The position numbers and the translations under genes were made by a program. The notes beneath the pieces were generated by a model, which did not search any database, was not told the origin of the DNA, and was given only the letters and a program-made list of their open reading frames with translations. DNA of 64,000 bases from a virus, in IMG/VR virus record IMGVR_UViG_3300046787_000200, positions 213,090 to 277,089 of that record. One strand, 5' to 3'. Positions 7,551-42,866 of this stretch are shown piece by piece. Position 1 is the stretch's first letter, and every line of letters begins with the position of its first letter.

Positions 7551-8377
7551 AAAAAGTTTTAATTACAGGTAACAGTGGTTACATAGGTTCACATCTTACT
7601 AAGATGTTAAAGAATGATTATGAAGTTTATGGATTAGATAAAGTAGAGCCACAAGAGTCACCTCATACATTCTATCATTGTGATATCAATCGTCAGTTTA
7701 GTTTAGAAGATGAGTTTGATTGTGTGATTCATTTAGCCGCATTGGTTAATGTAGGTGAAAGCGAAATCAAACCTATTCCATATTACATTACTAATTTGAA
7801 TGGCACAATGAATGTGTTGAATAAAATTAAAACAAAGAACTTTATCTTTGCAAGCACAGGAGCCGCACAAGATTGTTGTAGTGCATACGGAATTAGTAAA
7901 CGTGCGGCAGAAGATGTAGTTAGAGAATATTGTATCACCCATCGTCCAACACCATATACAATCTTTAGATTTTATAATGTTATTGGAAGCGAAGGCTTTG
8001 CTCCCACTAACCCCGATGGATTGATGTATAATCTAATTATGGCTATGCAATCAAAACAGTTTACTATATTCGGTAATGATTATGATGTATCACCTGATGG
8101 CACTTGTATTAGAGATTATGTTCATGTAAATGAAATATGTGATGCATTAAAACAAGCTATTGAGAAACCTAGTAATAGTGTAGAATGTTTGGGTCACGGA
8201 GTAGGATATACTGTAAAAGAGATTGTTGATGAGTTTCAAAAAGTCAATAATATCAACTTCAACGTGAAATACGGTTCAAGAAGAAAGGGTGATGTGGCCA
8301 GTAGTGTATTAGAAGATGTATCTCCTTATATGCGTAATTTGTATACAATAGACGAGTTGCTAAAGGTTGACAAATAA
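7544..8377 (+). CDS. NAD-dependent epimerase/dehydratase (SDR family)
   Basis: VLITGNSGYIGSHL Rossmann motif and a YGISK (YxxxK) catalytic motif. Confidence 0.7.
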   Translation: MVKKVLITGNSGYIGSHLTKMLKNDYEVYGLDKVEPQESPHTFYHCDINRQFSLEDEFDCVIHLAALVNVGESEIKPIPYYITNLNGTMNVLNKIKTKNFIFASTGAAQDCCSAYGISKRAAEDVVREYCITHRPTPYTIFRFYNVIGSEGFAPTNPDGLMYNLIMAMQSKQFTIFGNDYDVSPDGTCIRDYVHVNEICDALKQAIEKPSNSVECLGHGVGYTVKEIVDEFQKVNNINFNVKYGSRRKGDVASSVLEDVSPYMRNLYTIDELLKVDK

Positions 8378-8591
8378 TACATTTGGGTATATAATAGAGT
8401 CTTATTCAGTTGATTTACAGGGTAACAAAATGTCAGAAAAAGTAGAGCTTTATTGCACCCAAAATGACGAAGGTCAATGGCTTGTTTGGTTCCCTCATCC
8501 CTTAGGCGGTATGAATGTCTTGGAAACATTCGACAATGAAACCGACGCTAGGGCTTTTCACCAAGATCAAATTGATAGTGCTGAAATTTGA
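8367..8591 (+). CDS. hypothetical protein
   Basis: 74 aa. Its stop codon TGA lies inside the -35 of the downstream promoter. Confidence 0.4.
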   Translation: MTNNTFGYIIESYSVDLQGNKMSEKVELYCTQNDEGQWLVWFPHPLGGMNVLETFDNETDARAFHQDQIDSAEI

Positions 8592-8616
8592 CAATAAATG
8601 GCAATTGTGCTATAAT
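8588..8616 (+). promoter_or_regulatory. consensus sigma70-type phage early promoter TTGACAATAAAT-N-TATAAT
   Basis: TTGACA at 8588-8593, TATAAT at 8611-8616, 17-nt spacer. Confidence 0.55.
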
Positions 8617-8650
8617 ACTTGTATTGAGTTAATTAAAGGAATATAGATAT

Positions 8651-9322
8651 ATGGTTACGCAAACTAAATCGTTCAAATTGCCTAAAAATTTTCCACCAGT
8701 GGACAATGGTAGTGTATACAAAGAAATTACAAAAGTCATTAAAAACAATGAATTTGTATTTGATTTGGATAACCAAATATCAATGTTGGCATTACAAAAA
8801 ATGTTACCAGAGTATCCTTTTACTAAGGTTGCTGATTGTGTTTTGAATGTAGCTGAAAACTTTTTAGGTAAAAGTCTCTCTAGAAGAAAATATATTGATA
8901 GTATGTCATTTCAAGGTAATCTAGTTGATTATATTCCGGTAGCTGATATCAAAGCTTTGTGGGACGCTAGTCCTAAAGAATGGGTATACACTATTGTATA
9001 CAATGGTAAAATTGTTAAAATTGGCATGACTAGTTCGGGATTATCATCTAGGTATACTTCATATAAATCCGGAACTACCTTAGCAATGATTAAGGGTAGT
9101 TGTGCTACAACTAATTTTGTAGTTACACAATGCAATTATCTCGCATTATTGAAGAATATTAAGGTTGAAATTTTTGCATATGAAATTCCTCAGTTGATTA
9201 CTGAGCAGATTATTTTTGGCAAAAAAGAAAAAGTGCTAAATAAAGTAGCACATCAATTTGAATCTACCTTAATCAATATATACAAAGATTCAAAAGGATA
9301 TATTCCACCTTTGTGCGGATAA
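8651..9322 (+). CDS. hypothetical protein with a possible degenerate GIY-YIG nuclease motif
   Basis: VYTIVYNGKIVKIGMTSSGLSSRYTSY resembles GIY..YIG..R. Weak call. Confidence 0.3.
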   Translation: MVTQTKSFKLPKNFPPVDNGSVYKEITKVIKNNEFVFDLDNQISMLALQKMLPEYPFTKVADCVLNVAENFLGKSLSRRKYIDSMSFQGNLVDYIPVADIKALWDASPKEWVYTIVYNGKIVKIGMTSSGLSSRYTSYKSGTTLAMIKGSCATTNFVVTQCNYLALLKNIKVEIFAYEIPQLITEQIIFGKKEKVLNKVAHQFESTLINIYKDSKGYIPPLCG

Positions 9323-9335
9323 TTATAAAAACTTA

Positions 9336-10253
9336 ATGAAAACTAAATCTTTAATCAAAGCGCAGACTGTTGCTAAAATAAAAATAAAAAAAGAATTGGA
9401 TAAGTTTTACACACATCCAGACATTGCAAAGAAATTTGTTGATTATATAAATGCGTTAGTACCTTTATCTAACTTCGGCACAGTATTAGAACCTTCTGCC
9501 GGCTCAGGAAACATATTACAATTTCTACCGAACACTGCAATTGGAATGGACCTATACCCAGAATCAAAGAATATTATTCAACAAGATTTTTTCACATATG
9601 AACCGGAAGGGTACCCCTTTCCAGGGGTACCGATAGCGTGTGTAGGTAATCCACCATTCGGTAACGGTTATATGAATCCGTTGGCTAAAGGATTTTTTAA
9701 TCATGCGGCTAAATTCAGTGATGTAATAGCATTTATTGTTCCGGCAAAATGGCACACATCGTGGAAAGTTCATAAACAATTAGATACTAGATTTGGATTA
9801 TATTTTAGCGAAATTCTTCCTAAAAATAGTTTTTTATTAAATGATATAGCATATGATGTAAACTGTTGTATGCAAATTTGGAGTAAGAACGCATTAGGTA
9901 CCAATTTAAGAATTATTACGAAACCAAAAACATCGCATGAAGATTTTGATTTCTTTTTGACTTGTGACAATGTTCCCAGAAAAAAAGAAGTTATCCAACA
10001 ATTAACTAATAAAGAATATTGGGAATTTGGTTTGAAATACTGGGGAAAGATTGGTTTATGTGAGATCACTGACGTGCCGATAACCACTACAACTCATTAC
10101 TTGTTTAAATCTAAAAAGCCCTATGTTAGGTCTATCTTAGAGCAAATTGATTGGATGAAATATGTTTCTAATATGGGAGCCCCTAATATCGGTGGCAAGT
10201 CTATTCTTGTCAAAGCATATGAAGATAAAAAACACGAACTACAAATTAAATAA
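9336..10253 (+). CDS. DNA N6-adenine/N4-cytosine methyltransferase (amino-MTase, motif I then IV)
   Basis: LEPSAGSGNIL (motif I) and GNPPFGNGY (motif IV, NPPF). Confidence 0.7.
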   Translation: MKTKSLIKAQTVAKIKIKKELDKFYTHPDIAKKFVDYINALVPLSNFGTVLEPSAGSGNILQFLPNTAIGMDLYPESKNIIQQDFFTYEPEGYPFPGVPIACVGNPPFGNGYMNPLAKGFFNHAAKFSDVIAFIVPAKWHTSWKVHKQLDTRFGLYFSEILPKNSFLLNDIAYDVNCCMQIWSKNALGTNLRIITKPKTSHEDFDFFLTCDNVPRKKEVIQQLTNKEYWEFGLKYWGKIGLCEITDVPITTTTHYLFKSKKPYVRSILEQIDWMKYVSNMGAPNIGGKSILVKAYEDKKHELQIK

Positions 10254-29125: not shown

Positions 29126-29433
29126 TACACATTACTGAAGAAGGCGGAGTGATTCGCAATGGTTTGAATTTTTACCCGCTAACGGATAAAAGCAGTTTTG
29201 GGTTTAGGTTTCGTTATGGATCAAAAATCTTTTGGTTTCGGTATAGCCGAATCACTCAACGCTGGACCATTAAAAACAGCACCAATCTGGTTGATAGTTA
29301 AAAATTTACTTTGGTATTGCCCTAAAATTTACTTTGGTATTGCTCCGGTATAAGAGTAATACTTTTTGCTGACTTGACACAAAATCCATTTGGTTGTATA
29401 ATATACACATAGACAGACAAAAAGGAGAGAAAA

Positions 29434-29639: not shown

Positions 29640-29669
29640 TTGACAATAAATGAGTATTATGTTATAATA
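29640..29669 (+). promoter_or_regulatory. consensus early promoter with conserved leader
   Basis: TTGACA at 29640, TATAAT at 29664 (18-nt spacer). Leader AGAATCTTAGACAGTAAAG. Confidence 0.5.
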
Positions 29670-31011: not shown

Positions 31012-31334
31012 AAGAACTGATTAGAAAGTTTGAAAAAGAATCTGGCCTTGAAATCTACGGACTCGGAGCGAGACGAGAAAAGTGGGAACACTGTATGGAA
31101 AAGTTCACTGAGTTGGTTGTTCGGGAATGTGTTTCTATCTGTAAAGATAAAGAACGCCCAAATCTATATGGTATTAAAGAAGTTGAAGTAGCGATTAAAC
31201 AACATTTTGGTATTATTGAACCTAAAGGCTGGGTCTGCCCCAAATGCAAGGCTGATAGAACTAAGATTCCTTGCCCATTAGGTTTTGGAGCACAAGTAGA
31301 TGGTCGTTGCCCTATGACTGCGGAGGCACAATGA
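31008..31334 (+). CDS. fusion-type paralog: KFTELVVREC core plus a C-terminal zinc-ribbon module
   Basis: KFTELVVRECVSICKD ... HFGIIEP ... CPKCKADRTKIPCP ... RCP. Confidence 0.45.
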   Translation: MKELIRKFEKESGLEIYGLGARREKWEHCMEKFTELVVRECVSICKDKERPNLYGIKEVEVAIKQHFGIIEPKGWVCPKCKADRTKIPCPLGFGAQVDGRCPMTAEAQ

Positions 31335-31507
31335 TTAAAGTATTATTTGCATTTGTATTACTATTTGCTGTATTTTATGCGGGTATTACACTTGCCCGAA
31401 AAATGACAGGTAAAGAGGCATTAGCCTTGACAAAAATTGCAGGATACAGTATACTATCTTCATTACTGACACTTGCAGTATTAATCTCAATCGTTGTAAT
31501 TTTTTAA
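31331..31507 (+). CDS. small two-helix membrane protein
   Basis: Track ORF trimmed to the ATG after GGAGG (ATGA overlap). Hydrophobic VLFAFVLLFAVFYAGITL and LLTLAVLISIVVIF. Confidence 0.4.
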   Translation: MIKVLFAFVLLFAVFYAGITLARKMTGKEALALTKIAGYSILSSLLTLAVLISIVVIF

Positions 31508-31603
31508 GGACTATAATGTTTCCTGAATTTCTTGTGAGACCATTATATTTTATTCTTGGTTTCGTATTTTGTTTCTTTCTTTTTGTAAAAGGTATTATCT
31601 AAA

Positions 31604-32416
31604 ATGAATCGTTCTATTAAACTCTCTCTTATCGCTATCGCAGTTGCATTGACTAGTGCTTGCACCCGTATTGAAACTGGTGAGGTCGGTGTTCGTGTTG
31701 GCTTTGACAAACAAGTCAAGCCCGGTGAACTTGAACCCGGTAGCTTCAACCAAGTGCTTGTCGGTGATGTGTTGACCTTCCCATACAAGGATGTTAATAT
31801 CACTATTGACAATATGACTCCTGTTGCGAAAGACAACAGCACTATGAAAGACCTTGATGCGGTGATTGTTTACAACATCAACAAGAATCAAGCCGCTGAA
31901 CTGTATTCTACCAAGAACCGCAGTTTCCACGCTGACTTCAAAGGCGACACTTACTTGATGTATAACTACATTGTTCAGAATGCCCGTAATGCTATCTACA
32001 AGTCTGCACGAAAGTATGAAGCATTGGATATGGCAGACAATCGCACTGAGATGGAGAATTACATCAAAGATGAAATCACACGCAACCTTGCAGAAGAAAA
32101 ACTAGATGGTAGTATCACTATCACACAGGTTATGATTCGTACTGTAGTTCCAAGTGATACAGTTGTTGCAAGTGCAAATGATTTGGTTCGTAGTAAAAAC
32201 GAATTGAAGCAAAAAGAAGTTGAAGTTAAAACTGCTGAAGCAGAGGCCCGTCGTATTGCGGCTCTAGCACAAAATGCAGGTGCTATTCAATATATGGATG
32301 CTCAGGCTCGTATGAAGCAAGCAGATGCGGCACTTGAAACTGCTAAGGCTATTGCATCATTCAAGGGTAATACTCTTGTGATTGGTGCTGGAACTAATGT
32401 CAATGTAGGTAAATAA
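31604..32416 (+). CDS. SPFH/Band-7 (stomatin/HflK-like) domain lipoprotein
   Basis: Lipobox LTSAC. IETGEVGVRVGF ... DLDAVIVYNI is SPFH-like. Coiled-coil C-terminus. Confidence 0.55.
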   Translation: MNRSIKLSLIAIAVALTSACTRIETGEVGVRVGFDKQVKPGELEPGSFNQVLVGDVLTFPYKDVNITIDNMTPVAKDNSTMKDLDAVIVYNINKNQAAELYSTKNRSFHADFKGDTYLMYNYIVQNARNAIYKSARKYEALDMADNRTEMENYIKDEITRNLAEEKLDGSITITQVMIRTVVPSDTVVASANDLVRSKNELKQKEVEVKTAEAEARRIAALAQNAGAIQYMDAQARMKQADAALETAKAIASFKGNTLVIGAGTNVNVGK

Positions 32417-32545
32417 ATAGCATGTACCGACTATTCTATAAAATAGGATATGAGGTCGGTACATGCCTCTCATTATTATTGAGCAGGCAATCAATCACAA
32501 TGTGGGCTATGCTCACAATTTTTTATATTTTAAAAGGAAATTAAA

Positions 32546-32863
32546 ATGGCAACAAGAGTAATGATGAAGAATACTAAAACAGGTATTCGCAAAGAAGGTT
32601 ATTTTGGATTCAGTTGGACATACTTGTTCTTTGGATTCTGGGTACCATTGTTTAGAGGTCACTTCCCAATGGCAGGTATTCACCTAGTCATTAGTTTCAT
32701 CAGTGTCTTTATGTTTGGAATTCCACAACTTGTTCTTGCTTTCTTCTTCAATAAGTTTTATACTCTAAGACTCATTGAAGATGGTTATGAATTTGATGAT
32801 GATGAACAATTAGTAAAAACTGCATCTACCATCTTAAATATCGCACAACCTACAAAATCATGA
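32546..32863 (+). CDS. membrane protein
   Basis: 105 aa with two hydrophobic helices. AAAGGAAATTAAAATG ribosome-binding site. Confidence 0.45.
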   Translation: MATRVMMKNTKTGIRKEGYFGFSWTYLFFGFWVPLFRGHFPMAGIHLVISFISVFMFGIPQLVLAFFFNKFYTLRLIEDGYEFDDDEQLVKTASTILNIAQPTKS

Positions 32864-32977
32864 TGACCTTGAACGAATTCTCTATGTTTGTCGCTGGAGT
32901 TATCTGGGGCATCTTTATTATTAAGCCGTTATGGGAAATAGGGGCAAAGATTTACAAGAACGCTAAGGAGGCGCAAA

Positions 32978-33253
32978 ATGGTAACAATCGTTAAACATGA
33001 GTGGCATCAACATGATCGCCAATACGCAATTGAACTTGATGAGGCACTATTAAGTGAAATCTATCCTGATTTGGATGAAGATGAAATCGCACAGAAACTT
33101 GCTGATATTGAATCAGGTGAAGTTGATTACGAAGAAGTTATCAACGATGCCTACGAGAATGATGTAGAGATTGAATGGGACTTTCAATATGATGATTGTT
33201 GGACTGACCGCAAAGGTGGTTATGATGTTACATATGAATTGGTCAATAAATGA
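32978..33253 (+). CDS. small highly acidic protein
   Basis: 91 aa, about one third D/E. AAGGAGG ribosome-binding site. Confidence 0.45.
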   Translation: MVTIVKHEWHQHDRQYAIELDEALLSEIYPDLDEDEIAQKLADIESGEVDYEEVINDAYENDVEIEWDFQYDDCWTDRKGGYDVTYELVNK

Positions 33254-33453
33254 CTGACGATCCTAACTTATTAGTTGGTAAATCGTTTGTCTTTGAGGAT
33301 GGGGCTGAAATAACAGTAACACAGGCTAAGTTACGTGATGAAGGTATATATTGGGTAACATATATTACTAAAACAGGTCCCGGTATACCCGTAAGATATG
33401 TAATGAGACATGAAGAATTTATCAATACATATGGTCATTTGTTTAAAGACTAA
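33250..33453 (+). CDS. hypothetical protein
   Basis: 67 aa, ATGA overlap. Confidence 0.35.
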   Translation: MTDDPNLLVGKSFVFEDGAEITVTQAKLRDEGIYWVTYITKTGPGIPVRYVMRHEEFINTYGHLFKD

Positions 33454-33460
33454 ATATTAG

Positions 33461-35029
33461 ATGCGCTTAAAATTCCTATCTTTTTCAAATCTTACATTAT
33501 TGGTTGCACTATCATTAAGTTCAGTAGCAGCCTGGTATAGTATCATTGGCTTAACCGCTATCTTTGCAGGTGCGGTTATTCCTGTTATCATTATGGGTTC
33601 TATACTCGAAGTAGGTAAGATTACTACTACAGTATGGTTACGTAAATACTGGCATCGTGCTAGTTGGGTACTCAAACTATATCTTGTTCCTGCTGTTGTA
33701 GCATTAGCATTACTCACAAGCATGGGTATCTTTGGCTTCTTAAGTAAAGCGCACATGGACCAAGGTATCACATCAGGTGATGTGCAGGCTAAGTTAGCAC
33801 TTTATGATGAGAAGATAAAGACACAAAGAGATAATATTGAGTTAGCACGTAAAGCATTAACTCAAATGGATAACCAAGTTGACCAACGATTAAGTAGAGG
33901 TGATAGTGAAACTAGTGCTGAACGTGCAGTTGCTATTCGTAGACAACAAGCAGGTGAACGTAGTAAACTACAAAAAGATATTGGTGATGCACAAACACAA
34001 ATTGCTAAACTAAACGAAGAACGTGCGCCTATTGCGGCAGAGAATCGTAAAGTAGAAGCAGAAGTAGGTCCTATCAAATATATTGCCGCATTAATTTATG
34101 GTGATACTGCTGATAATAATATGTTAGAAAGTGCGGTAAGATGGGTTATTATATTATTGGTTGTTGTATTTGATCCATTGGCAATTGCACTTGTTCTTGC
34201 CGCTAATGCAAGTAAAGAATGGGATCTTGAAGAACCCGCAGAATATGATAAACCAGATGCATGGGTTGCTGATGTAGGTGAAAAACCTACTGTAGAAGAA
34301 ATTGAACCAGCATACGAGCCAGATGACGGTCCATTAACTGAAGAACAGATTGAACAAATCAAAGAAAGTGTCGATCCTGCTCCACCTGGATGGATGTTTG
34401 AGAAAAGTTCTATTATAAAAGATGAACCAGAAAAGTCAGTTGCAGAGTTGCATCCATACTTGAATCAGCCGTTCACACACTTTACTGATACTAAGCCAAT
34501 GGTTGCGCCCAAAGAAGAAGTAAAAGAAGAACCTATCGTTGAGAAAAAGCTAAAGAAGAAACGTGCTAAGAAAAAGGTTGAGCCAACTATTGAAACAGTA
34601 GACGTAACTACTGAAGAAGTTGTATTGCCTCCGGTAACAAAGTATAAAGAAATGCCTGGTGGTTATGTTGACTTTGAAGGTAAGCAGATTCAAAAAGATG
34701 CATTAAAGAGTTTGCGTCCGGATTTGTTTATGGTTAAACCAGACAGAACAAATGGGCAAGTTGAAACAGATTTTGGAACAAAGTTCCCCGAAACAGCAAA
34801 ACGTGGTAATATCTTTGTTCGTGTAGATGTTTCTCCCAATCGTGTCTATAAGTTTGATGGCCGTCAATGGATTGAAATGCAAAAGGAACAAACCGATACA
34901 TACCTTCACAACCAAAAGTATATTGAATTCCTAGTAGGAAAAATAGAAAAAGGTGAGTATGATATCGAGTTATTGTCCGATACCGAACGTGAAGAAATTG
35001 CCCAATATTTAGGTAACCAAAAGAGTTGA
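33461..35029 (+). CDS. large membrane protein with an N-terminal multi-TM region and extended coiled-coil/charged domains
   Basis: 522 aa. Three or four hydrophobic helices in the first 100 aa, a heptad-like charged middle section, and another TM around residue 225. Confidence 0.5.
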   Translation: MRLKFLSFSNLTLLVALSLSSVAAWYSIIGLTAIFAGAVIPVIIMGSILEVGKITTTVWLRKYWHRASWVLKLYLVPAVVALALLTSMGIFGFLSKAHMDQGITSGDVQAKLALYDEKIKTQRDNIELARKALTQMDNQVDQRLSRGDSETSAERAVAIRRQQAGERSKLQKDIGDAQTQIAKLNEERAPIAAENRKVEAEVGPIKYIAALIYGDTADNNMLESAVRWVIILLVVVFDPLAIALVLAANASKEWDLEEPAEYDKPDAWVADVGEKPTVEEIEPAYEPDDGPLTEEQIEQIKESVDPAPPGWMFEKSSIIKDEPEKSVAELHPYLNQPFTHFTDTKPMVAPKEEVKEEPIVEKKLKKKRAKKKVEPTIETVDVTTEEVVLPPVTKYKEMPGGYVDFEGKQIQKDALKSLRPDLFMVKPDRTNGQVETDFGTKFPETAKRGNIFVRVDVSPNRVYKFDGRQWIEMQKEQTDTYLHNQKYIEFLVGKIEKGEYDIELLSDTEREEIAQYLGNQKS

Positions 35030-35035
35030 AAACAA

Positions 35036-35064
35036 TTAAGTATTAGTATATAATATACATATTG
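35036..35064 (+). promoter_or_regulatory. sigma70-like promoter TTGAAA-N17-TATAAT
   Basis: Upstream of the lipoprotein gene at 35085. Confidence 0.4.
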
Positions 35065-35084
35065 TAACAACTATCGGAGTAATT

Positions 35085-35705
35085 ATGAAGCTCACGCTTA
35101 TCGCATTGTCTTGTGTAATCTTTGCAGGATGTGCTAGTAATAAAGGTGAAATTCCTACTATTGAATCACAATCATTCAAAATCAGTAAAAATGAATCAAT
35201 CAAAATTGATAAAGCATGTGGTTGGATTCAACGAGATAAATGTACTATTGAAAGAATCGAAGCTGTTGGTGTTCAACCATCAGTAGGTGCAACACGTTCA
35301 TTGCAAAAATCAACTACACTTATGGCTTGTGATAACGCTAGAGCCAACGTAGTTAGTTATGTGTTCGGCACTAATGTTAGTGAGAATAGAGTTGCACGAA
35401 CAAAGAACAAGCAGAATGAAAATCAAAAAGACCGTGTAAAGTCTAAGACTGAGATTGGTCAAGATGTTGATATGGCAAGTGATGACAATGAGAAAGATAC
35501 TAATTACAGTATCCGAGAAGCATTGATTAACTCTGACATTGATATGGTTCGAACAATCACTACATCTAGTCAAGGTAAATTAGTTGGATTTAGGATTGAA
35601 GATGCTAGACCAATTGATGCTAAAACAATTGCTTGTACTATCACTTGGAGCAAGAATGATAGCCAAGATTTGAAGAAAGTCCGTAGTTTAATTTCAGGAC
35701 AATAA
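35085..35705 (+). CDS. lipoprotein (LPP20-like)
   Basis: Lipobox IFAGC and an LPP20-like VGVQPSVGATRS ... A..A..V block. Confidence 0.45.
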   Translation: MKLTLIALSCVIFAGCASNKGEIPTIESQSFKISKNESIKIDKACGWIQRDKCTIERIEAVGVQPSVGATRSLQKSTTLMACDNARANVVSYVFGTNVSENRVARTKNKQNENQKDRVKSKTEIGQDVDMASDDNEKDTNYSIREALINSDIDMVRTITTSSQGKLVGFRIEDARPIDAKTIACTITWSKNDSQDLKKVRSLISGQ

Positions 35706-36673
35706 TGAAAAAATTACTATCAGGATTGTTATGTCTGGTAGCTACAACTGCAGGTGCTATACAAGTTACTGGCGAAGGTTCTACGTTTGAAGAAGCAAAA
35801 CAAAATGCTTTTAAAACAGCAATTGAATTTGAAGCTGGTGCGGTTGTAGTTAGTGAACGTGAAAGCAGTAACTATAAATTAGTAAGGAATGAGATTCTAG
35901 TTTATAGTTCTGGCTACATCACTGATTATAAAATCATTAGTTCCATTAATCAAGGCAATCAATTCAAGGTATTAGTAGATGTTCAAGTTGCTAGTAACAA
36001 ACTAGCTGATAGGATATTGGGTGTAGGTAAGGATGCTAAAACTTTTGATACTGACAAACACAGTAATCAATATAATAGTTATTTGCAGGGTAAACAAAAC
36101 GGTGATAGATTGTTACAACAACTATTAAATGATTACCCTAAAAAAGCATACAATCTTACACAAGGTGTTCATCAGTTAAAAGTTGATGTTAATCGTAATG
36201 GTATCATTGAAATCCCATTAGAGTTACGTTGGAACTATAAGTTTATTGAATCATTTAATGAGGCACTTAAAATTTTAGAAGATGGTAGTAATGGTTTATT
36301 AAAAGCTAGTCCGAGTAACGTTACAGTAATGGCGAAGGATCCTAAAGATTGGGTAATAGGTAGTAAAAATCAGTATAAGTTTAATGATATGAATACTGTA
36401 TCTATGATTACGCAAACATTACAGAACAATCAACCTAGAATTTTAGTTAGCATTAAGAATCTTAATAACAAGATTGCATTTCAACAATGTTATATTCCCG
36501 ACTCAATGTCAGGAAAGAAGCCGGCATTTTATGATGCTAGCAATCACGTTGTAGTATATGGAAATCGTGTTGAGAAGAATAAAATTTTCTTAAATTTTGT
36601 AAACATGCACGAAGTAATTAAAGAGATTCAAAGCATAGAACTAAACATTGTAGCAGATAATAACTGTCCATAA
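35705..36673 (+). CDS. secreted/periplasmic protein with an N-terminal LPP20-like domain
   Basis: Signal peptide, then VTGEGSTFEEAKQNAFKTAIEFEAGAVVVSE. TAATG overlap. Confidence 0.45.
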   Translation: MKKLLSGLLCLVATTAGAIQVTGEGSTFEEAKQNAFKTAIEFEAGAVVVSERESSNYKLVRNEILVYSSGYITDYKIISSINQGNQFKVLVDVQVASNKLADRILGVGKDAKTFDTDKHSNQYNSYLQGKQNGDRLLQQLLNDYPKKAYNLTQGVHQLKVDVNRNGIIEIPLELRWNYKFIESFNEALKILEDGSNGLLKASPSNVTVMAKDPKDWVIGSKNQYKFNDMNTVSMITQTLQNNQPRILVSIKNLNNKIAFQQCYIPDSMSGKKPAFYDASNHVVVYGNRVEKNKIFLNFVNMHEVIKEIQSIELNIVADNNCP

Positions 36674-36711
36674 AAAATCATTCACATAAAAAAACACAGA
36701 TAAGTATTAAT

Positions 36712-37914
36712 ATGTCAACAGAAAACAAACTCAATCATTGCTCATTTTGTGATAAACACAAAGATGATGTTAAGAAACTAATTGTTAGCGAAGAAGTGGC
36801 AATTTGTAGTGATTGCGTAGAACTATGCAATTCACTTATGTTAGATGATGATGGTAAAAGTGAATTTGTATCGGAAGATACTGTATCATATGATCCAGAA
36901 TCAATTAAAGATTATCTTGACCAACATGTTATCGGACAAGATAATGCTAAAAAAGTGTTAAGTGTTGCTATTGCTAATCACTATAAACGTATCAACCGGC
37001 CACCAAAAGACTTAGAAATCTCTAAGGGTAATGTGTTGCTTGTTGGTCCTACTGGCTCAGGTAAAACATTGCTTGCTAAGACAGTTGCCAAATATCTCAA
37101 AGTGCCCTTTGTTGTAGCAGATGCGACAAGTATCACTGAAGCTGGTTATGTAGGTGATGACGTTGAATCCATGATTAGTATGTTACTCAATGCCGCTGGC
37201 GGTGATGTTAAACTGGCCGAGCGTGGTATTGTGTTCATTGATGAGATTGACAAGATTGCACGTAAAGGCGAATCTGCAAGTATCACCCGTGATGTGTCAG
37301 GTGAGGGTGTTCAGCAAGCTTTACTGAAAATGGTTGAAGGCACTGTATGTCGTATTCCAGCAGGTGGTGGACGTAAACATCCCGGTGGTGATATGATTGA
37401 GATTAACACTAAGAATATCTTATTCATTGCCGGTGGTGCATTTGTTGGGTTGAAAGATATTATTAAAAGTAGAGAAACTGGATCTAGTATCGGGTTCGGG
37501 GCTAAAATCAAAGATAAGAGCATAGAGGGCAATCTAAGCAACGTTAGCCCAGACGATTTAGTTAAATTCGGTATGATTCCTGAATTCATCGGACGTTTCA
37601 CTACTACTGTAAACGTAGAGGATTTGAGCAAAGAAGATTTGGTAAAGGTATTGACTGGTATTAAGAATAACTATATCGACCAATACAAGTATTTGCTGAG
37701 TTTAGACAACATTGAGTTAAACTTCACAGAAGATGCATTGGATCAGTTAGCAGAGAATACACTAGCATTGAAAACAGGTGCTCGTGGATTGCATACTGAG
37801 ATTGAGCGTGTATTGATGACACATATGTTTAATACTAAGAAATACCGTGAAAATAAAATTCTAAACATAAATATAGATAGAAAACAAATTTTGGAGCCAA
37901 AAGTATTAGTATGA
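36712..37914 (+). CDS. clpX: ATP-dependent Clp protease ATP-binding subunit ClpX
   Basis: N-terminal C4 zinc domain (CSFC ... CSDC), Walker A LLVGPTGSGKTLLAKT, and ClpX-wide similarity over 400 aa. Confidence 0.9.
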   Translation: MSTENKLNHCSFCDKHKDDVKKLIVSEEVAICSDCVELCNSLMLDDDGKSEFVSEDTVSYDPESIKDYLDQHVIGQDNAKKVLSVAIANHYKRINRPPKDLEISKGNVLLVGPTGSGKTLLAKTVAKYLKVPFVVADATSITEAGYVGDDVESMISMLLNAAGGDVKLAERGIVFIDEIDKIARKGESASITRDVSGEGVQQALLKMVEGTVCRIPAGGGRKHPGGDMIEINTKNILFIAGGAFVGLKDIIKSRETGSSIGFGAKIKDKSIEGNLSNVSPDDLVKFGMIPEFIGRFTTTVNVEDLSKEDLVKVLTGIKNNYIDQYKYLLSLDNIELNFTEDALDQLAENTLALKTGARGLHTEIERVLMTHMFNTKKYRENKILNINIDRKQILEPKVLV

Positions 37915-38126
37915 GAGGTAGAAAGGTTTTAGTTCAGGACGGAAACGTAGACAAAGCATTGCGAAAATTTAAAAAAATTATCGCAGACTATGGTACCTTG
38001 CAAGAGGTTCGTGACCGTCAAGAATTTGTAAAGCCTACTATCAAACGCAAATTAGCAAGAAGCCAGGCGAAAAGACGCTGGAACAAGTATTTGCGTGACC
38101 AAAGTCTTCCTAAGAAAAACTTTTAA
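37911..38126 (+). CDS. rpsU: ribosomal protein bS21
   Basis: 71 aa. KVLVQDGNVDKALRKFKK ... EVRDRQEFVKPTIKRK aligns with bacterial S21. ATGA overlap with clpX. Confidence 0.8.
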   Translation: MRGRKVLVQDGNVDKALRKFKKIIADYGTLQEVRDRQEFVKPTIKRKLARSQAKRRWNKYLRDQSLPKKNF

Positions 38127-38232
38127 GTTCCAAAATAGTAGATTTTTTTGCATATTTTTATTATAATAAATATGTATTCAGATGCCGATGGTCGGGTCTG
38201 AAATATGTCATCTTGCTTAAAAGGAGAAAAAA

Positions 38233-38685
38233 ATGACAAATCAATTAACCCTTCGTTCCTTAGACATTCCGTCTATTCATAAGTTCTCAGTCGGTTTCGA
38301 CCGTATGTTTGACGAACTAACTCGTAATCAAGCGCAACAATCAAACTACCCCCCATATAACATTGTACAAATCAATGAAGATGAATATATGATTAGTGTT
38401 GCTGTTGCAGGTTTCGGGCCTGATAATCTATCAGTTACAAAAGATAAAAACTTCCTAGTAATTGAAGGTAATCATGCATTGAATAGTATTAAAACTAACG
38501 ATGCAGATCCTGTATATCTACATAAGGGTATCAGTGAGCGTAACTTCCGACGTGAGTTCCGTTTAGCGGACCATGTAGAGATTGAGAACGCACATTTAGA
38601 ATTGGGTATCTTAAGTATTCACTTGAAACGTGAAGTTCCTGAAGAACAAAAGCCCAAGTCTATTGCAATTACCTACACTAAATAA
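38233..38685 (+). CDS. ibpA: small heat-shock protein (IbpA/IbpB, Hsp20 family)
   Basis: SVGFDRMFDEL ... YPPYNIVQINEDEYMISVAVAGF, i.e. the alpha-crystallin domain. Confidence 0.85.
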   Translation: MTNQLTLRSLDIPSIHKFSVGFDRMFDELTRNQAQQSNYPPYNIVQINEDEYMISVAVAGFGPDNLSVTKDKNFLVIEGNHALNSIKTNDADPVYLHKGISERNFRREFRLADHVEIENAHLELGILSIHLKREVPEEQKPKSIAITYTK

Positions 38686-38748
38686 TATAATAGTGTTTCA
38701 TTAAAACAAGTGTGCGGGGCAACTCGCACACATAACTAAAAGAAAATT

Positions 38749-39054
38749 ATGTCTAAAACTGATACTAAAATTAAAATCAAACCTAATCTTGCACTAGCAG
38801 AACCCCCATTGTATAAAATCATTTATATCAATGATGAAGTAACCAGTATGCAATTTGTAGTAAACAGTTTGATTAGTTATTTTAATTATAATGAAGATAC
38901 TGCAACTTCATTGACAGAGAATATTCATCATCAAGGTAGTGCAGTTGTTGCAGTTTTACCGTACGAAATTGCAGAGCAAAAGGGAATTGAAGTAACACTT
39001 GATGCACGTAGCAAGGGTTTTCCACTACAAGTCAAAGTAGAAGCTGAGGCTTAA
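38749..39054 (+). CDS. clpS: Clp protease adaptor ClpS (N-degron recognin)
   Basis: PPLYKIIYINDEVTSMQFVV ... HHQGSAVVAVLPYEIAE matches the ClpS core. Confidence 0.8.
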   Translation: MSKTDTKIKIKPNLALAEPPLYKIIYINDEVTSMQFVVNSLISYFNYNEDTATSLTENIHHQGSAVVAVLPYEIAEQKGIEVTLDARSKGFPLQVKVEAEA

Positions 39055-40128: not shown

Positions 40129-40620
40129 ATGTTCAGAAACGCAAATTTAGCCGAACTTATGCGTGAGGAGTTGCCTCCGATAGCATATCAAAAACGCCTT
40201 CTTTATAGAACGGACTATGATGAAGTTGTAGCACTTTATCGCCTGATTAATAAAACTATTTTCAACAATAAACTTATCATGCCTGAAATTGAGGTTATGC
40301 CACGTTGTAGAAAATACTGGGGAATGTGCTATGGTGCATTAAAAATGCCCACTAAGAATAAAAGCTTTTGCAAAATACGTATGATGGATAAATGGTATTG
40401 TCGTCAATGGTTAATTAATGTATTAGCACATGAAATGTGTCATCAATATCAATGGGATGTTGAGGGAGTTCGTAGACTTAATCGAGGACAACAACCTATA
40501 ATGAGTCATGGTCCTAGTTTCTTTGTATTCAGAGACAAATTAAAGAAACATGGCATAGCATTAAAAAGCGCACATAGCAAACGTAAGTGGTTTCACCATC
40601 AAAACTTATTTAAGTGTTGA
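40129..40620 (+). CDS. SprT-like zinc metalloprotease domain protein
   Basis: HEMCH (HExxH motif) in NVLAHEMCHQYQW. Confidence 0.45.
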   Translation: MFRNANLAELMREELPPIAYQKRLLYRTDYDEVVALYRLINKTIFNNKLIMPEIEVMPRCRKYWGMCYGALKMPTKNKSFCKIRMMDKWYCRQWLINVLAHEMCHQYQWDVEGVRRLNRGQQPIMSHGPSFFVFRDKLKKHGIALKSAHSKRKWFHHQNLFKC

Positions 40621-40638
40621 ATCTGATAAATACTCATT

Positions 40639-42207
40639 ATGCGTGATTTAATAACATTACTTGAAAACCTAGCTATGGCAGAAGCCGCAAAGAAAGATCC
40701 TAATGCTCCTTCTACACTCTTTGCTAATGGCTTAACACCTACACAAATTAATAAAGAGCCTGCAAGATGGAACTTATTGATTAATAAAATAAAGACTAAT
40801 AAACCATTTGTTGATAACTACACAGGTGAGGATATCTATATCAAACCAAGTGAAGTCAATCGTCTTACACAACTTAAAGATGAAGGTAAGTTTAAAGGGG
40901 AAAAAGTTACTATTATAACTAAAGATGGTAGAGAAATCCCAATGGCTCAGTTAGCCAAAAATGAAGAATTTGGCGGCAGTACTAAAGAATCTGTTTTACT
41001 AAAGCCATCACTAATTAAAATCACTGATAGAGATATACCTGCGTCTGACTTGTATGAAACAATTGAAAACAATCAAGTATTAGCAAGCACCGATTACGGG
41101 CAAGTAGTCCAACAACTTGCTACATATATTGTATCCGGTGAGTATGTTCAGATGCCAGAACAATATACAACAAAAGAAAAAGAAAAAGAACGCAAAGCTA
41201 TTGTTGATTATGCAGGTGAGTATTTAGGTGTGTTAGCTTTGTTATATGACCGTAGTCGTTTCCCGAGAAAACGTCAGTTCCAAGAATGGCTTGGTGGTGA
41301 TATGGGTTCATTGGTATTAAATTTCCCTAGTGCGGCTAACAATAACATTGCAGATAGTTATGCTACTATCACTAATCCAGGTACAAGTCATAGCTTGAAC
41401 ATTTCAAGTAAAGGAACCGGTGGCGGAGCGGCGCCTGCAGTATCTGGATTGAAAGTTAGTGAAGATATTAAACGTAATCCTAAATTACGAAACGCAGTAA
41501 AACTTATTGAATTATGCCAAGCAGGTAAAGATGCTAGTGGTCCAAGCACAATTGTTCAAGCATTTAAGATTATGGATTTCTTATTTAAAGTGAATCCAAG
41601 TAGCATTCCTAAAATATGGCACAAGTTTTTGCCATTCGAAAGTAAAGCTCCAAAGATACTACAACAAAGTATTGATAGCATAAACAACGGCACTTCATTA
41701 CCATCGTCATATCAACCACTGCTTAATGCAGTAAACAGTGAAACTGCTACTGATGGTGGTAAGCTGGTATATCTCATTAAGAAAACTATTGCACATAGTG
41801 TAAATGAGGGTAATGCAATTCCTGAATTTGCTGATACTATCTTACAAGTTTTAGAAATGAACTTCATCCAACAATATACAGATTATCATAGCAACGGTGA
41901 ACTAACCTTTGCAACTCAGTGGCCATCTAAGTTGTCAGGTGTCGTTACATTAGAAAACAAGTCAAGTGCAAAAGAACCAAGTAGTGCTGGTTTTAGCTTC
42001 AAGTTGGGTAGAAATGCACAAGATTATGATGATCCAGGTCCAGACGGTGCGACCGGAGATGTTATTCAGCCAGATGAATACGGAGATGATGTGGGTGCGG
42101 CTGCGGCAGATATTGTTGAACCAAAAATCAACAACAAAAATGTCAGGGCATTCGCCAAACCTGAACCCGAAGCTGATATCGGCATCGGTCGTAAGAAGCG
42201 TAAATAA
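40639..42207 (+). CDS. hypothetical protein (522 aa) with a basic C-terminal tail
   Basis: Long ORF with diverse composition, ending GIGRKKRK. Confidence 0.5.
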   Translation: MRDLITLLENLAMAEAAKKDPNAPSTLFANGLTPTQINKEPARWNLLINKIKTNKPFVDNYTGEDIYIKPSEVNRLTQLKDEGKFKGEKVTIITKDGREIPMAQLAKNEEFGGSTKESVLLKPSLIKITDRDIPASDLYETIENNQVLASTDYGQVVQQLATYIVSGEYVQMPEQYTTKEKEKERKAIVDYAGEYLGVLALLYDRSRFPRKRQFQEWLGGDMGSLVLNFPSAANNNIADSYATITNPGTSHSLNISSKGTGGGAAPAVSGLKVSEDIKRNPKLRNAVKLIELCQAGKDASGPSTIVQAFKIMDFLFKVNPSSIPKIWHKFLPFESKAPKILQQSIDSINNGTSLPSSYQPLLNAVNSETATDGGKLVYLIKKTIAHSVNEGNAIPEFADTILQVLEMNFIQQYTDYHSNGELTFATQWPSKLSGVVTLENKSSAKEPSSAGFSFKLGRNAQDYDDPGPDGATGDVIQPDEYGDDVGAAAADIVEPKINNKNVRAFAKPEPEADIGIGRKKRK

Positions 42208-42220
42208 TTACCAAAAACAT

Positions 42221-42249
42221 TTGACTTTAACATAAACTTCTGTTATAAT
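42221..42249 (+). promoter_or_regulatory. sigma70-like promoter TTGACT-N17-TATAAT upstream of clpP
   Basis: TTGACT at 42221, TATAAT at 42244. Confidence 0.5.
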
Positions 42250-42278
42250 AGTGGAAACATTATTTTTAAAGGAAGTTT

Positions 42279-42866
42279 ATGTCTCTAGTACCAATCGTTA
42301 TTGAACAAACAAGCAAAGGTGAACGTAGCTATGATATCTATAGCCGTCTAATGCGTGACCGTGTTATTCTGCTTGAAGGTGAAGTTCACGACCAAATGGC
42401 AAATCTAATTGTTGCTCAACTACTATTCCTCGAAAGTGAAGGTGACAAAGATATCTCAATGTATATCAATAGCCCAGGTGGTAGTGTAACTGCTGGTATG
42501 GCAATCTATGATGCTATGCAATTCATTAAACCCGATGTACAAACAATCGTTATGGGTCAAGCTTGTTCAATGGGTTCACTACTCGCACAAGCAGGAGCTA
42601 AAGGTAAACGTATGATGTTGCCTAATGCACGACACATGATTCACCAACCCTCAGGTGGCGCACGTGGTATGCAAAGTGATATCGAAATCAGCTATAAAGA
42701 AATTACTTACTTGAAGAAACGCCTAACCGATATCTATGTCAAGCATAACAGTGCAGGAAAGACTTATGAAGAATTTGAACGAGACATGGACCGTGATAAG
42801 TTCATGTCGGCTGAAGAAGCATTAGCTTACGGCTTGATTGATAAAATTATTGAAAAGAGAGAATAA
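42279..42866 (+). CDS. clpP: ATP-dependent Clp protease proteolytic subunit ClpP
   Basis: [19 protein letters not shown]-type N-terminus. Catalytic-region blocks [23 protein letters not shown] and HQPSGG. Confidence 0.9.

Follow-up and report, generated by a model that had tools for sequence, protein, structure and literature searches.

The question raised by the 64,000-nucleotide stretch of the IMG/VR virus record IMGVR_UViG_3300046787_000200 considered here (positions 213,090–277,089 of the record; hereafter, the window) is whether nine tightly packed open reading frames (ORFs) on its plus strand, located at 31331–36673 and numbered g1–g9, constitute a single functional module. The sequence-only reading of the window had described them as an envelope-targeted cluster organised by an SPFH/Band-7 lipoprotein and adjoining a Clp protease module. 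Comparison with about 250 related loci indicates that the interval very likely consists of three evolutionary layers with different histories and not of one module: a variable island of imported small envelope genes (31331–32994), the conserved trio g5-g6-g7 (32978–35029), and a pair g8-g9 (35026–36673) that appears to be translationally coupled. The composite nature of the interval follows from the patchy occurrence of the island genes, the near-universal presence of g5–g7, the recurrence of the g1-g2 cassette in an unrelated cyanophage, and the occurrence of g3 in unrelated phages. A three-layer patchwork combined with early conditioning of the host envelope is the overall explanation that we consider best, with a probability of roughly 0.4.

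Clade-wide gene counts were obtained for 86 related IMG/VR loci (L001–L086) on contigs of up to 524 kb. Homologs of g7 were found in 85 of them, those of g6 in 82 and those of g5 in 78, with g6 sitting immediately 5' of g7 in 82 loci. The g8 and g9 genes, detected in 59 and 61 loci, respectively, are present or absent together. In contrast, g1 and g2 occur together in only 16–17 loci, g4 in 20 (tblastn search), and g3 in none. Among the downstream genes, clpX was found in 73 loci, and those for the small heat-shock protein (sHSP), ClpS and ribosomal protein S21 in 60–65. In a close relative, whose g9 is 94% identical, a contig of 358,613 bp carries genes for DNA ligase, a long g5, g6, g7, g8, g9 and ClpX in this order, followed by S21 - sHSP - clpS - ... 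- SprT - ClpP, and contains neither the array of small paralogs found in the window at 29.4–31.3 kb nor the SPFH gene; therefore, the 28.4–33.0 kb segment of the window is a variable island. These distributions contradict the single functional module proposed initially. Moreover, among the clade loci covering both flanks, the SPFH cassette and g8-g9 are inversely distributed: both were found in 5 loci, g8-g9 only in 46, the SPFH cassette only in 10, and neither in 5 (Fisher p = 3e-5, with the loci counted as independent and without correction for phylogeny). Such a pattern could reflect functional substitution or mere subclade structure.

The window is of phage origin, as first proposed, since its relatives are IMG/VR contigs and the neighbouring genes are phage-type. 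A nucleotide search against deposited phages returned short patches only, and therefore there is no cultured close relative; we take the locus to belong to the early/middle region of an uncultured jumbo-phage genome of about 350 kb. A search of NCBIfam yielded nothing meaningful, none of the nine proteins matched PADLOC models at E ≤ 0.01, and PDB sequence and profile searches for g9, g8, g7 and g2 gave either nothing or generic coiled coils only. Structure models were computed on database homologs of the window proteins.

Envelope-directed products are encoded by six or seven of the nine adjacent genes, a density that would be expected to lie above chance, and by the comparative data the adjacency is partly fortuitous. 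All the ORFs claimed in the sequence-only reading are present, but its list omitted g4 and g6; likewise, the envelope targeting holds for most products but not for g5 and g6, which are cytoplasmic-type proteins. The only genes with a credible lipobox in the whole window are g2 and g8. The coordinates of the genes and other features are listed in Table 1.

Table 1. Genes and sequence features at the g1–g9 locus and immediately downstream (positions in the window; aa, amino acids; TM, transmembrane helix).
Feature	Position	Strand	Length	Description
g1	31331–31507	+	58 aa	two membrane helices; partner of the SPFH lipoprotein gene
Promoter-like site TTGACA-17-TATACT	31427–31455	+		upstream of g2; 11/12 consensus positions; pattern match only
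g2	31604–32416	+	270 aa	SPFH/Band-7 lipoprotein; accessory
Terminator-like hairpin and T-run	32501–32517	+		directly after g2
g3	32546–32863	+	105 aa	membrane protein; accessory
g4	32860–32994	+	44 aa	one membrane helix; hydrophobic N-terminus
g5	32978–33253	+	91 aa	acidic, net charge -22
g6	33250–33453	+	67 aa	soluble; no membrane helix or signal peptide
g7	33461–35029	+	522 aa	polytopic inner-membrane protein; conserved anchor gene of the region
g7 N-terminal module	33461–34225	+		residues 1–255: TM1-TM2-TM3, periplasmic hairpin, TM4
g7 helical hairpin	33773–34075	+		residues ~105–205, turn 147–149
g7 C-terminal domain	34643–35026	+	~125 residues	residues ~395–522; specific to the phage clade
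Sigma-70-type promoter TTGAAA-17-TATAAT	35026–35054	+		11/12 consensus; -35 element overlaps the g7 stop; before g8
g8	35085–35705	+	206 aa	lipoprotein; possibly split LPP20-like domain
g9	35705–36673	+	322 aa	secreted periplasmic protein; start overlaps the g8 stop
g9 N-terminal FlgT_N/LPP20-like domain	35759–35995	+		residues ~19–97
clpX, bS21, sHSP, clpS block	36712–39054	+		Pfam matches; always after g7 or g8-g9

From its N-terminus, the g7 protein consists of three membrane helices, a helical hairpin (about 100 residues) and a fourth membrane helix; a disordered acidic linker then leads to a globular C-terminal domain. The N-terminal transmembrane helices had been recognised from the sequence, but g7 does not have the "long charged coiled coils" ascribed to it and contains a single hairpin. 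Within the N-terminal half, only this hairpin, with an estimated length of roughly 7 nm, is modelled with confidence. In all homologs, K and R are abundant in the TM2-TM3 loop and in the segment following TM4, so that, by the positive-inside rule, the hairpin should be periplasmic and the C-terminus cytoplasmic. Residues S27, G30, F35, K53, S87, G89, G92, L94, G203, P204, D238, P239 and A241 are invariant in phage and bacterial homologs and E50 is nearly invariant, and the hairpin varies in both length and sequence; therefore, the membrane bundle with buried charges looks like the functional core. The active part of g7 would probably be this highly conserved four-helix bundle with the buried charged residues E50, K53 and D238. 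The C-terminal domain, modelled with a predicted local distance difference test score (pLDDT) of about 70–80, is conserved within the clade, shows a weak match to PHROG 11591 (E-value of 6.7e-5) and none to Pfam, and is not common to the homologs in cultured phages. Many g7 relatives (e.g., L002, L004 and L013) carry a CxxCG...GIGxFCPNKxCDV zinc ribbon in the cytoplasmic linker (alignment columns about 350–376), an insert that the window g7 lacks.

The g7 product is distantly similar to the Pfam family DUF4407 (PF14362): it scores 23.8 bits, below the gathering threshold of 31.3, and covers profile positions 132–283 only. This region, the C-terminal half of the model, comprises the hairpin and the last membrane helix. 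DUF4407 matches 32 of 41 g7 relatives (best E-value of 7e-6), none near the gathering score; about half of the g7 database homologs have a precomputed PF14362 match, and the distant homologs from Bdellovibrio, Polynucleobacter and WOR-3 have no DUF4407 match. DUF4407 has no known function, and the literature on DUF4407/PF14362 consists of incidental mentions only. A homology of g7 to T4 gp40 was considered and dropped on the basis of size and architecture.

The g7 family is very abundant in aquatic phages and comprises more than 8000 metagenomic homologs, all unnamed; it extends to phages of Proteobacteria, Bacteroidota and Cyanobacteria and to the chromosomes of Bdellovibrionota. The N-terminal module was found in cultured phages with widely differing hosts, namely Pelagibacter phage Mosig, Xanthomonas phages XacN1 and Xoo-sp13, Stenotrophomonas phages CM1 and RAS14, Salicola phage SCTP-2, Microcystis phage Mel-JY01, Ralstonia phage RsoM2USA and Flavobacterium phage immuto, as well as in 735-kb metagenomic phages and more than 600 IMG/VR stretches. 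It is also encoded in many Bdellovibrionota chromosomes, always followed by the gene of another conserved membrane protein. In Bdellovibrio and Pseudobdellovibrionaceae chromosomes, including complete genomes, a g7-like gene for 260–300 aa precedes that for a 250–290-aa membrane protein, and the wider neighbourhood varies (L140, L144, L145, L109, L132, L137 and L157, about 7970–9650 in each); neither gene has a Pfam annotation, and the partner shows no similarity to any window protein. In addition, g7-like genes with 36–53% identity occur in Polynucleobacter isolate and metagenome-assembled genome (MAG) contigs (L100, L101 and L103), one of them inside a 2.0-Mb contig; these may point to a prophage or a homolog of cellular origin, or else to a host of related freshwater phages.

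Most g5 relatives (e.g., L003, 8504–9784, and L025, 4401–6005) are proteins of 173–535 aa that have, in addition, one to three CxxC...CxxC zinc ribbons and a C-terminal domain of about 200 aa without a Pfam match. The window g5, correctly described in the sequence-only reading as a strongly acidic 91-aa protein, is a truncated form, limited to the N-terminal domain, of this longer conserved cytoplasmic protein.

A lipobox lipoprotein followed by a signal-peptide protein had been proposed for the third layer, and both assignments proved correct. In the g8 lipobox FAGC, Cys16 is invariant in the family, and position +2 is occupied by A, S or G but never by Asp; by the Lol rule of E. coli, the mature protein of about 190 residues should therefore be sorted to the outer membrane. 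The g9 protein has a signal-peptidase-I type signal (TTAGA/IQV), and many relatives have a lipobox at the same place, so that the family alternates between lipid-anchored and soluble forms in the periplasm. The cysteine pairs C45/C53 of g8 and C262/C321 of g9 are invariant, which is compatible with periplasmic disulfides. The pair is restricted to this uncultured clade: the g8 family accounts for only 135 clusters among 1.84 billion representative proteins, neither protein has a match in 50,697 deposited phage genomes, and g9 has only three matches in BFVD, all from uncultured phages. Both proteins evolve faster than their neighbours, with identities of 25–45% among relatives versus about 75% for ClpX.

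The claim that g8 and g9 both carry LPP20-like domains stood only in part. The Pfam models LPP20 (PF02169) and FlgT_N (PF16548) do not match the window g9 at E ≤ 0.1, nor does LPP20 match the window g8 at this threshold. Nevertheless, relatives of g9 show sub-threshold matches to FlgT_N (9 of 32, best E-value of 4.3e-5) and to LPP20 (8 of 32, best E-value of 2e-4), and the AlphaFold2 (AF2) model of g9, with a pLDDT of 78, seems to resemble the beta-alpha-beta-beta fold of FlgT_N/LPP20. It is thus reasonable to call g9 LPP20-like at the fold level. For g8, LPP20 matches one of 22 relatives with an E-value of 0.19. A local, domain-restricted hhalign comparison of g8 with the g9 N-domain gave a probability of 54% and an E-value of 1.8e-5 over all 89 columns; this alignment needs an insertion of several tens of residues in g8 after the first helix, and the full-length profile comparison of the two proteins matches the signal peptides only. 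An exhaustive profile search with g8 delineated a small closed family whose distant short members have no LPP20 Pfam match, and therefore no transitive link to LPP20. A split LPP20-like domain in g8 can be suggested only tentatively.

The position of the sigma-70-type promoter between g7 and g8 is conserved. In nearly all of the 14 relatives checked, TTGAC(A) and TATAAT- or TATACT-like elements followed by a GGAG ribosome site occur at the same place, in spite of g8 being only 25–37% identical. This conservation is good evidence that g8-g9, and probably clpX-S21 behind them, would be transcribed early by the host polymerase. The downstream genes had been described as a Clp module, and ClpX, S21, HSP20, ClpS, an SprT-like protein and ClpP were all confirmed there; DNA ligase and the small-paralog array lie upstream of the locus. 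The synteny of the Clp block is kept in about 60–73 of the 86 loci.

In Salicola phage SCTP-2 (440 kb), whose g7-like gp195 is 31% identical to g7, the order is gp195 - ClpX - S21-like - ClpS, with different genes upstream of gp195, and three other large contigs have g7 - S21 - sHSP - clpS without clpX. No clpX gene adjoins the g7-like gene in any of 80 more distant viral loci, and the association of g7 with the Clp block seems to be confined to jumbo lineages. The conserved adjacency, including that in SCTP-2, had suggested that g7 could be a membrane adaptor of ClpX; this idea was down-weighted in view of the loss of the adjacency in all 80 distant loci, the promoter between the genes, and C-terminal tails that are non-homologous between lineages.

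Other observations concern the Clp block itself. The bS21 gene at 37911–38126 (Pfam E-value of 5.5e-16) has a start overlapping the clpX stop, as also in L167 (6347–6607). The order clpX - S21 - (sHSP) - clpS is found clade-wide and in SCTP-2, where gp193 is 40% identical to the window S21. A conserved GATAAGTA / GATAAATTA-like motif at 36690–36711 precedes the clpX start codon by a few nucleotides. The motif also occurs in L001–L059 and L167, with or without g8-g9, and in SCTP-2, and might serve as a promoter element of the phage or in translation. Past clpS, the proteolysis cluster is extended at 40129–42866 by an SprT-like metallopeptidase (E-value of 1e-7), a 522-aa ORF without Pfam or PHROG matches, and ClpP (E-value of 1e-79).

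The island preceding g5 is centred on g1 and g2, and the initial identification of a two-helix membrane peptide and of an SPFH/Band-7 lipoprotein with the lipobox LTSAC was upheld. The hydrophobic segments of g1 span residues 1–25 and 34–58, and the g1 homologs that co-occur with g2 are 58 aa long in every case. The g2 protein matches Pfam Band_7 (PF01145) along profile positions 2–176 of 176, with an E-value of 1.4e-18 and 68 bits versus a gathering cut-off of 23.6, and also matches PHROG 200 "lipoprotein" (E-value of 2e-33). Its lipobox is kept in 14 of 14 distinct family members compared, with Thr at +2. SPFH lipoprotein homologs of g2 are encoded by 191 deposited phage genomes; the best match in a cultured phage, with 41.6% identity, comes from Synechococcus phage BUCT-ZZ01, in which the gene of a 58-aa two-helix peptide precedes the SPFH homolog as g1 precedes g2. 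The two genes form a mobile cassette common to unrelated phages. The promoter-like site and the terminator-like hairpin around g2 suggest the self-contained layout of an imported cassette, which seems to carry its own signals. With a lipobox signal peptide in place of an HflK/C-like membrane helix, g2 is predicted to be an SPFH protein of the periplasm with a lipid anchor, and the window genes that were examined include none for FtsH. Therefore, the FtsH/HflKC analogy reduces to a shared domain name, and the link to this type of proteolysis proposed in the sequence-only reading is not sustained.

Another membrane protein noted initially, g3, matches PHROG 4915 (E-value of 2e-23) and has homologs in PBECO4-like jumbo coliphages and Lactobacillus phages. 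Two perfect sigma-70 consensus promoters, TTGACA-17-TATAAT (12/12), at 29374–29402 and 29640–29668 precede the small-paralog array, the products of which end in ...HFGVE(E/L). A comparative-genomics paper on jumbo phages (PMC7824862) makes no mention of SPFH or lipoproteins.

The genes adjoining g7 bear on its possible partners. Within the clade, a lipoprotein gene starts 54–79 nucleotides past the g7 stop in 63 of 82 members. Among distant viral loci, a 45–66-aa lipobox ORF overlaps the stop of the g7-like gene by 3–25 nucleotides in 8 of 72 cases, against an expected 1.9% per overlap window (binomial p = 8e-5, with related loci counted as independent); these overlapping small lipoproteins belong to about four unrelated families. 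In 34 of 80 distant viral loci, the g7-like gene is closely preceded by that of a membrane-anchored glucosaminidase (PF01832, E-value of 7e-18), and 7 of the 8 loci with a small overlapping lipoprotein also have the glucosaminidase. The complete order glucosaminidase - g7-like - small lipoprotein occurs in seven viral loci and one MAG contig. Marine contigs with a glucosaminidase, a g7-like protein and a 45–57-aa lipoprotein include L177 (5312–7099), L179, L229, L188, L189, L186, L227 and L097; in the cassette of Mosig (L088, 5289–6921), the glucosaminidase gene is followed by the g7-like one without a lipoprotein ORF. The marine glucosaminidase/g7-like arrangement is suggestive of a lysis or cell-wall cassette of an unconventional type. 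The window and the close clade lack a homolog of the glucosaminidase.

Taking these data together, one could propose the following scenario. Host RNA polymerase would make g8 and g9 early, and the two products would be exported and would condition the outer membrane and the periplasm for a long infection. In this scheme, g8 would be a lipoprotein of the outer membrane, and g9, with three domains, would reside in the periplasm; both have apparent LPP20/FlgT-N-like domains, whose fold is often found in rings beneath the outer membrane. The two proteins might dock on the periplasmic hairpin of g7, giving an inner-to-outer-membrane bridge; that g7 works with periplasmic partners is suggested by the recurrent lipoprotein genes 3' and glucosaminidase genes 5' of g7-like genes. 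The output could be the exclusion of competing phages or the stabilisation of the envelope. Superinfection exclusion, which the sequence-only reading had also considered, is compatible with the conserved promoter before g8, but no homology to exclusion systems was found. We regard early envelope conditioning, or a bridge between the membranes, as a tentative mechanism, much less certain than the composite structure of the interval.

Several observations weigh against early envelope conditioning by g7–g9. None of these three proteins has a characterised homolog, the model of g7 is poor as a whole (pLDDT of 58), and the LPP20 fold link of g8 is the single comparison at 54% probability. Promoter pattern matches in the region are no more numerous than in shuffled sequence, and the promoter lying between g7 and g8 means that their adjacency may be historical. 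Related loci were taken as independent in the glucosaminidase counts, as in those of lipoproteins. Finally, about 15 clade members have g7 but not g8-g9, and no lipoprotein ORF is found next to g7 in any of the six cultured phages checked or in the Bdellovibrionota chromosomes; g7 therefore does not need g8-g9 as partners.

These facts lead to the alternative that survives best, although we consider it unlikely: g7 would act alone by means of its membrane bundle, e.g., as a channel, transporter or regulator of some conserved membrane process of the host, and g8-g9 would be an independent insertion heading the Clp/S21 transcription unit, without any joint function. In most lineages g7 stands alone, in some of them next to genes of DNA polymerase B, UvsX or the clamp loader, and in Bdellovibrionota it has a different conserved partner. 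The invariant intramembrane E, K and D residues combined with a variable hairpin would place its function in the bundle, and -10-like elements are still carried by g7-clpX intergenic regions that have no g8-g9. However, lipoprotein genes of different families have been gained after g7-like genes repeatedly and above chance, and a periplasmic hydrolase recurs upstream of them.

A spanin-like lysis device, in which g7 would be the i-spanin-like and g8 the o-spanin-like component that couple or fuse the two membranes after degradation of the cell wall, with g9 as an accessory, is less probable still. The gene of an inner-membrane coiled-coil protein followed by that of a lipoprotein is the expected order, the marine glucosaminidase - g7-like - overlapping lipoprotein cassette resembles an endolysin/spanin cassette, and the periplasmic cysteines are conserved. 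In Flavobacterium phage immuto, genes of a chitinase-like hydrolase and a holin lie at a distance of 2 kb from the g7 homolog, and the Mosig homolog lies between two hydrolases, the glucosaminidase and GH108. In known i-spanins, which evolve fast, one membrane helix is combined with a free C-terminus in the periplasm. However, g7 has four helices with invariant buried charges, both ends of its hairpin are anchored in the membrane, and a cytoplasmic domain is present; g8, in turn, is a folded protein and not a short proline-rich peptide. The conserved host-type promoter points to early expression, no cell-wall hydrolase is encoded near g7 in the clade, and the chromosomal homologs of Bdellovibrionota have no lipoprotein partners.

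The least supported explanation is the initial one, in which the whole interval is a single SPFH-organised exclusion or envelope-stress module tied to FtsH/HflKC or Clp proteolysis: although most products are envelope-located, promoters are of the early type, and the order g7 - clpX - S21 - clpS is kept in SCTP-2 in spite of the g7 divergence, it is very improbable given the uncoupling of the accessory SPFH+g1, g3 and g4 from g5–g9, the inverse distribution of SPFH and g8-g9, the absence of an HflK/C-type helix, of an FtsH gene among those seen and of PADLOC matches, the lack of clpX next to distant g7-like genes, and the cytoplasmic nature of g5 and g6.

Beyond early conditioning by g8 and g9, a broader and rather unlikely proposition is that the g7 family forms the core of an unrecognised, widespread phage envelope machine, in which the bundle would recruit or control periplasmic effectors via the hairpin. 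With equally low confidence, small lipoproteins together with the glucosaminidase could be the effectors in marine phages, and the g8/g9 pair those in the jumbo clade. The device itself might be polytopic and spanin-like, or a controller of wall hydrolases linking the inner to the outer membrane, which is speculative to the same extent.

Hardly any envelope protein of an uncultured jumbo phage has been characterised. If g7 were indeed a membrane hub working with lipoproteins and hydrolases, this would assign a role to an abundant membrane family of the aquatic virome and would also explain the presence of homologs in predatory Bdellovibrionota. Likewise, g8 and g9 would be unusual phage proteins based on the ring-forming FlgT/LPP20 fold, and the SPFH cassette is a clear case of a mobile pair of envelope genes shared by unrelated phages. 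The main outcome of the analysis is to correct a reading that was too unified: the genes form a mosaic, linked to Clp- or FtsH-type proteolysis by position only.

Among known systems, the two-component spanins (lambda Rz/Rz1 and T4 PseT.3/PseT.2) resemble the locus in having the gene of an inner-membrane protein with a periplasmic coil followed by that of an outer-membrane lipoprotein, and the distant g7 relatives add a small overlapping lipoprotein ORF and an adjacent wall hydrolase. They differ in that g7 is polytopic and combines a conserved bundle with a cytoplasmic domain, in that g8 is a large folded protein, and in that expression is probably early; a Pfam scan found no sequence similarity of the window proteins to spanin families. 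Classical exclusion factors include early lipoproteins (e.g., T5 Llp) and proteins of the inner membrane (e.g., T4 Imm and Sp). The window proteins share no homology with them and would act as three components versus one, but both are envelope products of lytic phages made from apparently host-type promoters, and g8 and g9 are fast-evolving.

The cassette of g1 and g2 is reminiscent of the bacterial SPFH-NfeD operons (QmcA-YbbJ) and of HflK/C-FtsH, as a full Band_7 domain protein is paired with a small membrane protein. However, g2 is anchored by its lipobox and not by an N-terminal helix, no FtsH partner was seen, and g1, with only 58 aa and two helices, has no counterpart of the soluble domain that typifies NfeD proteins. 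We know of no phage SPFH protein with a tested function. Finally, g8 and g9 may be compared with the LPP20 family (HP1454/HP1456/HP1457 of H. pylori) and with FlgT and FlgP of the Vibrio H-ring. The likeness consists, for g9, in the N-domain recognised by family hidden Markov models and, more tentatively, by fold, and, for g8, in a lipoprotein with a possible split domain. FlgT, too, is a secreted three-domain protein, and it forms a 26-mer ring with the lipoprotein FlgP (10.64898/2025.12.04.692373).

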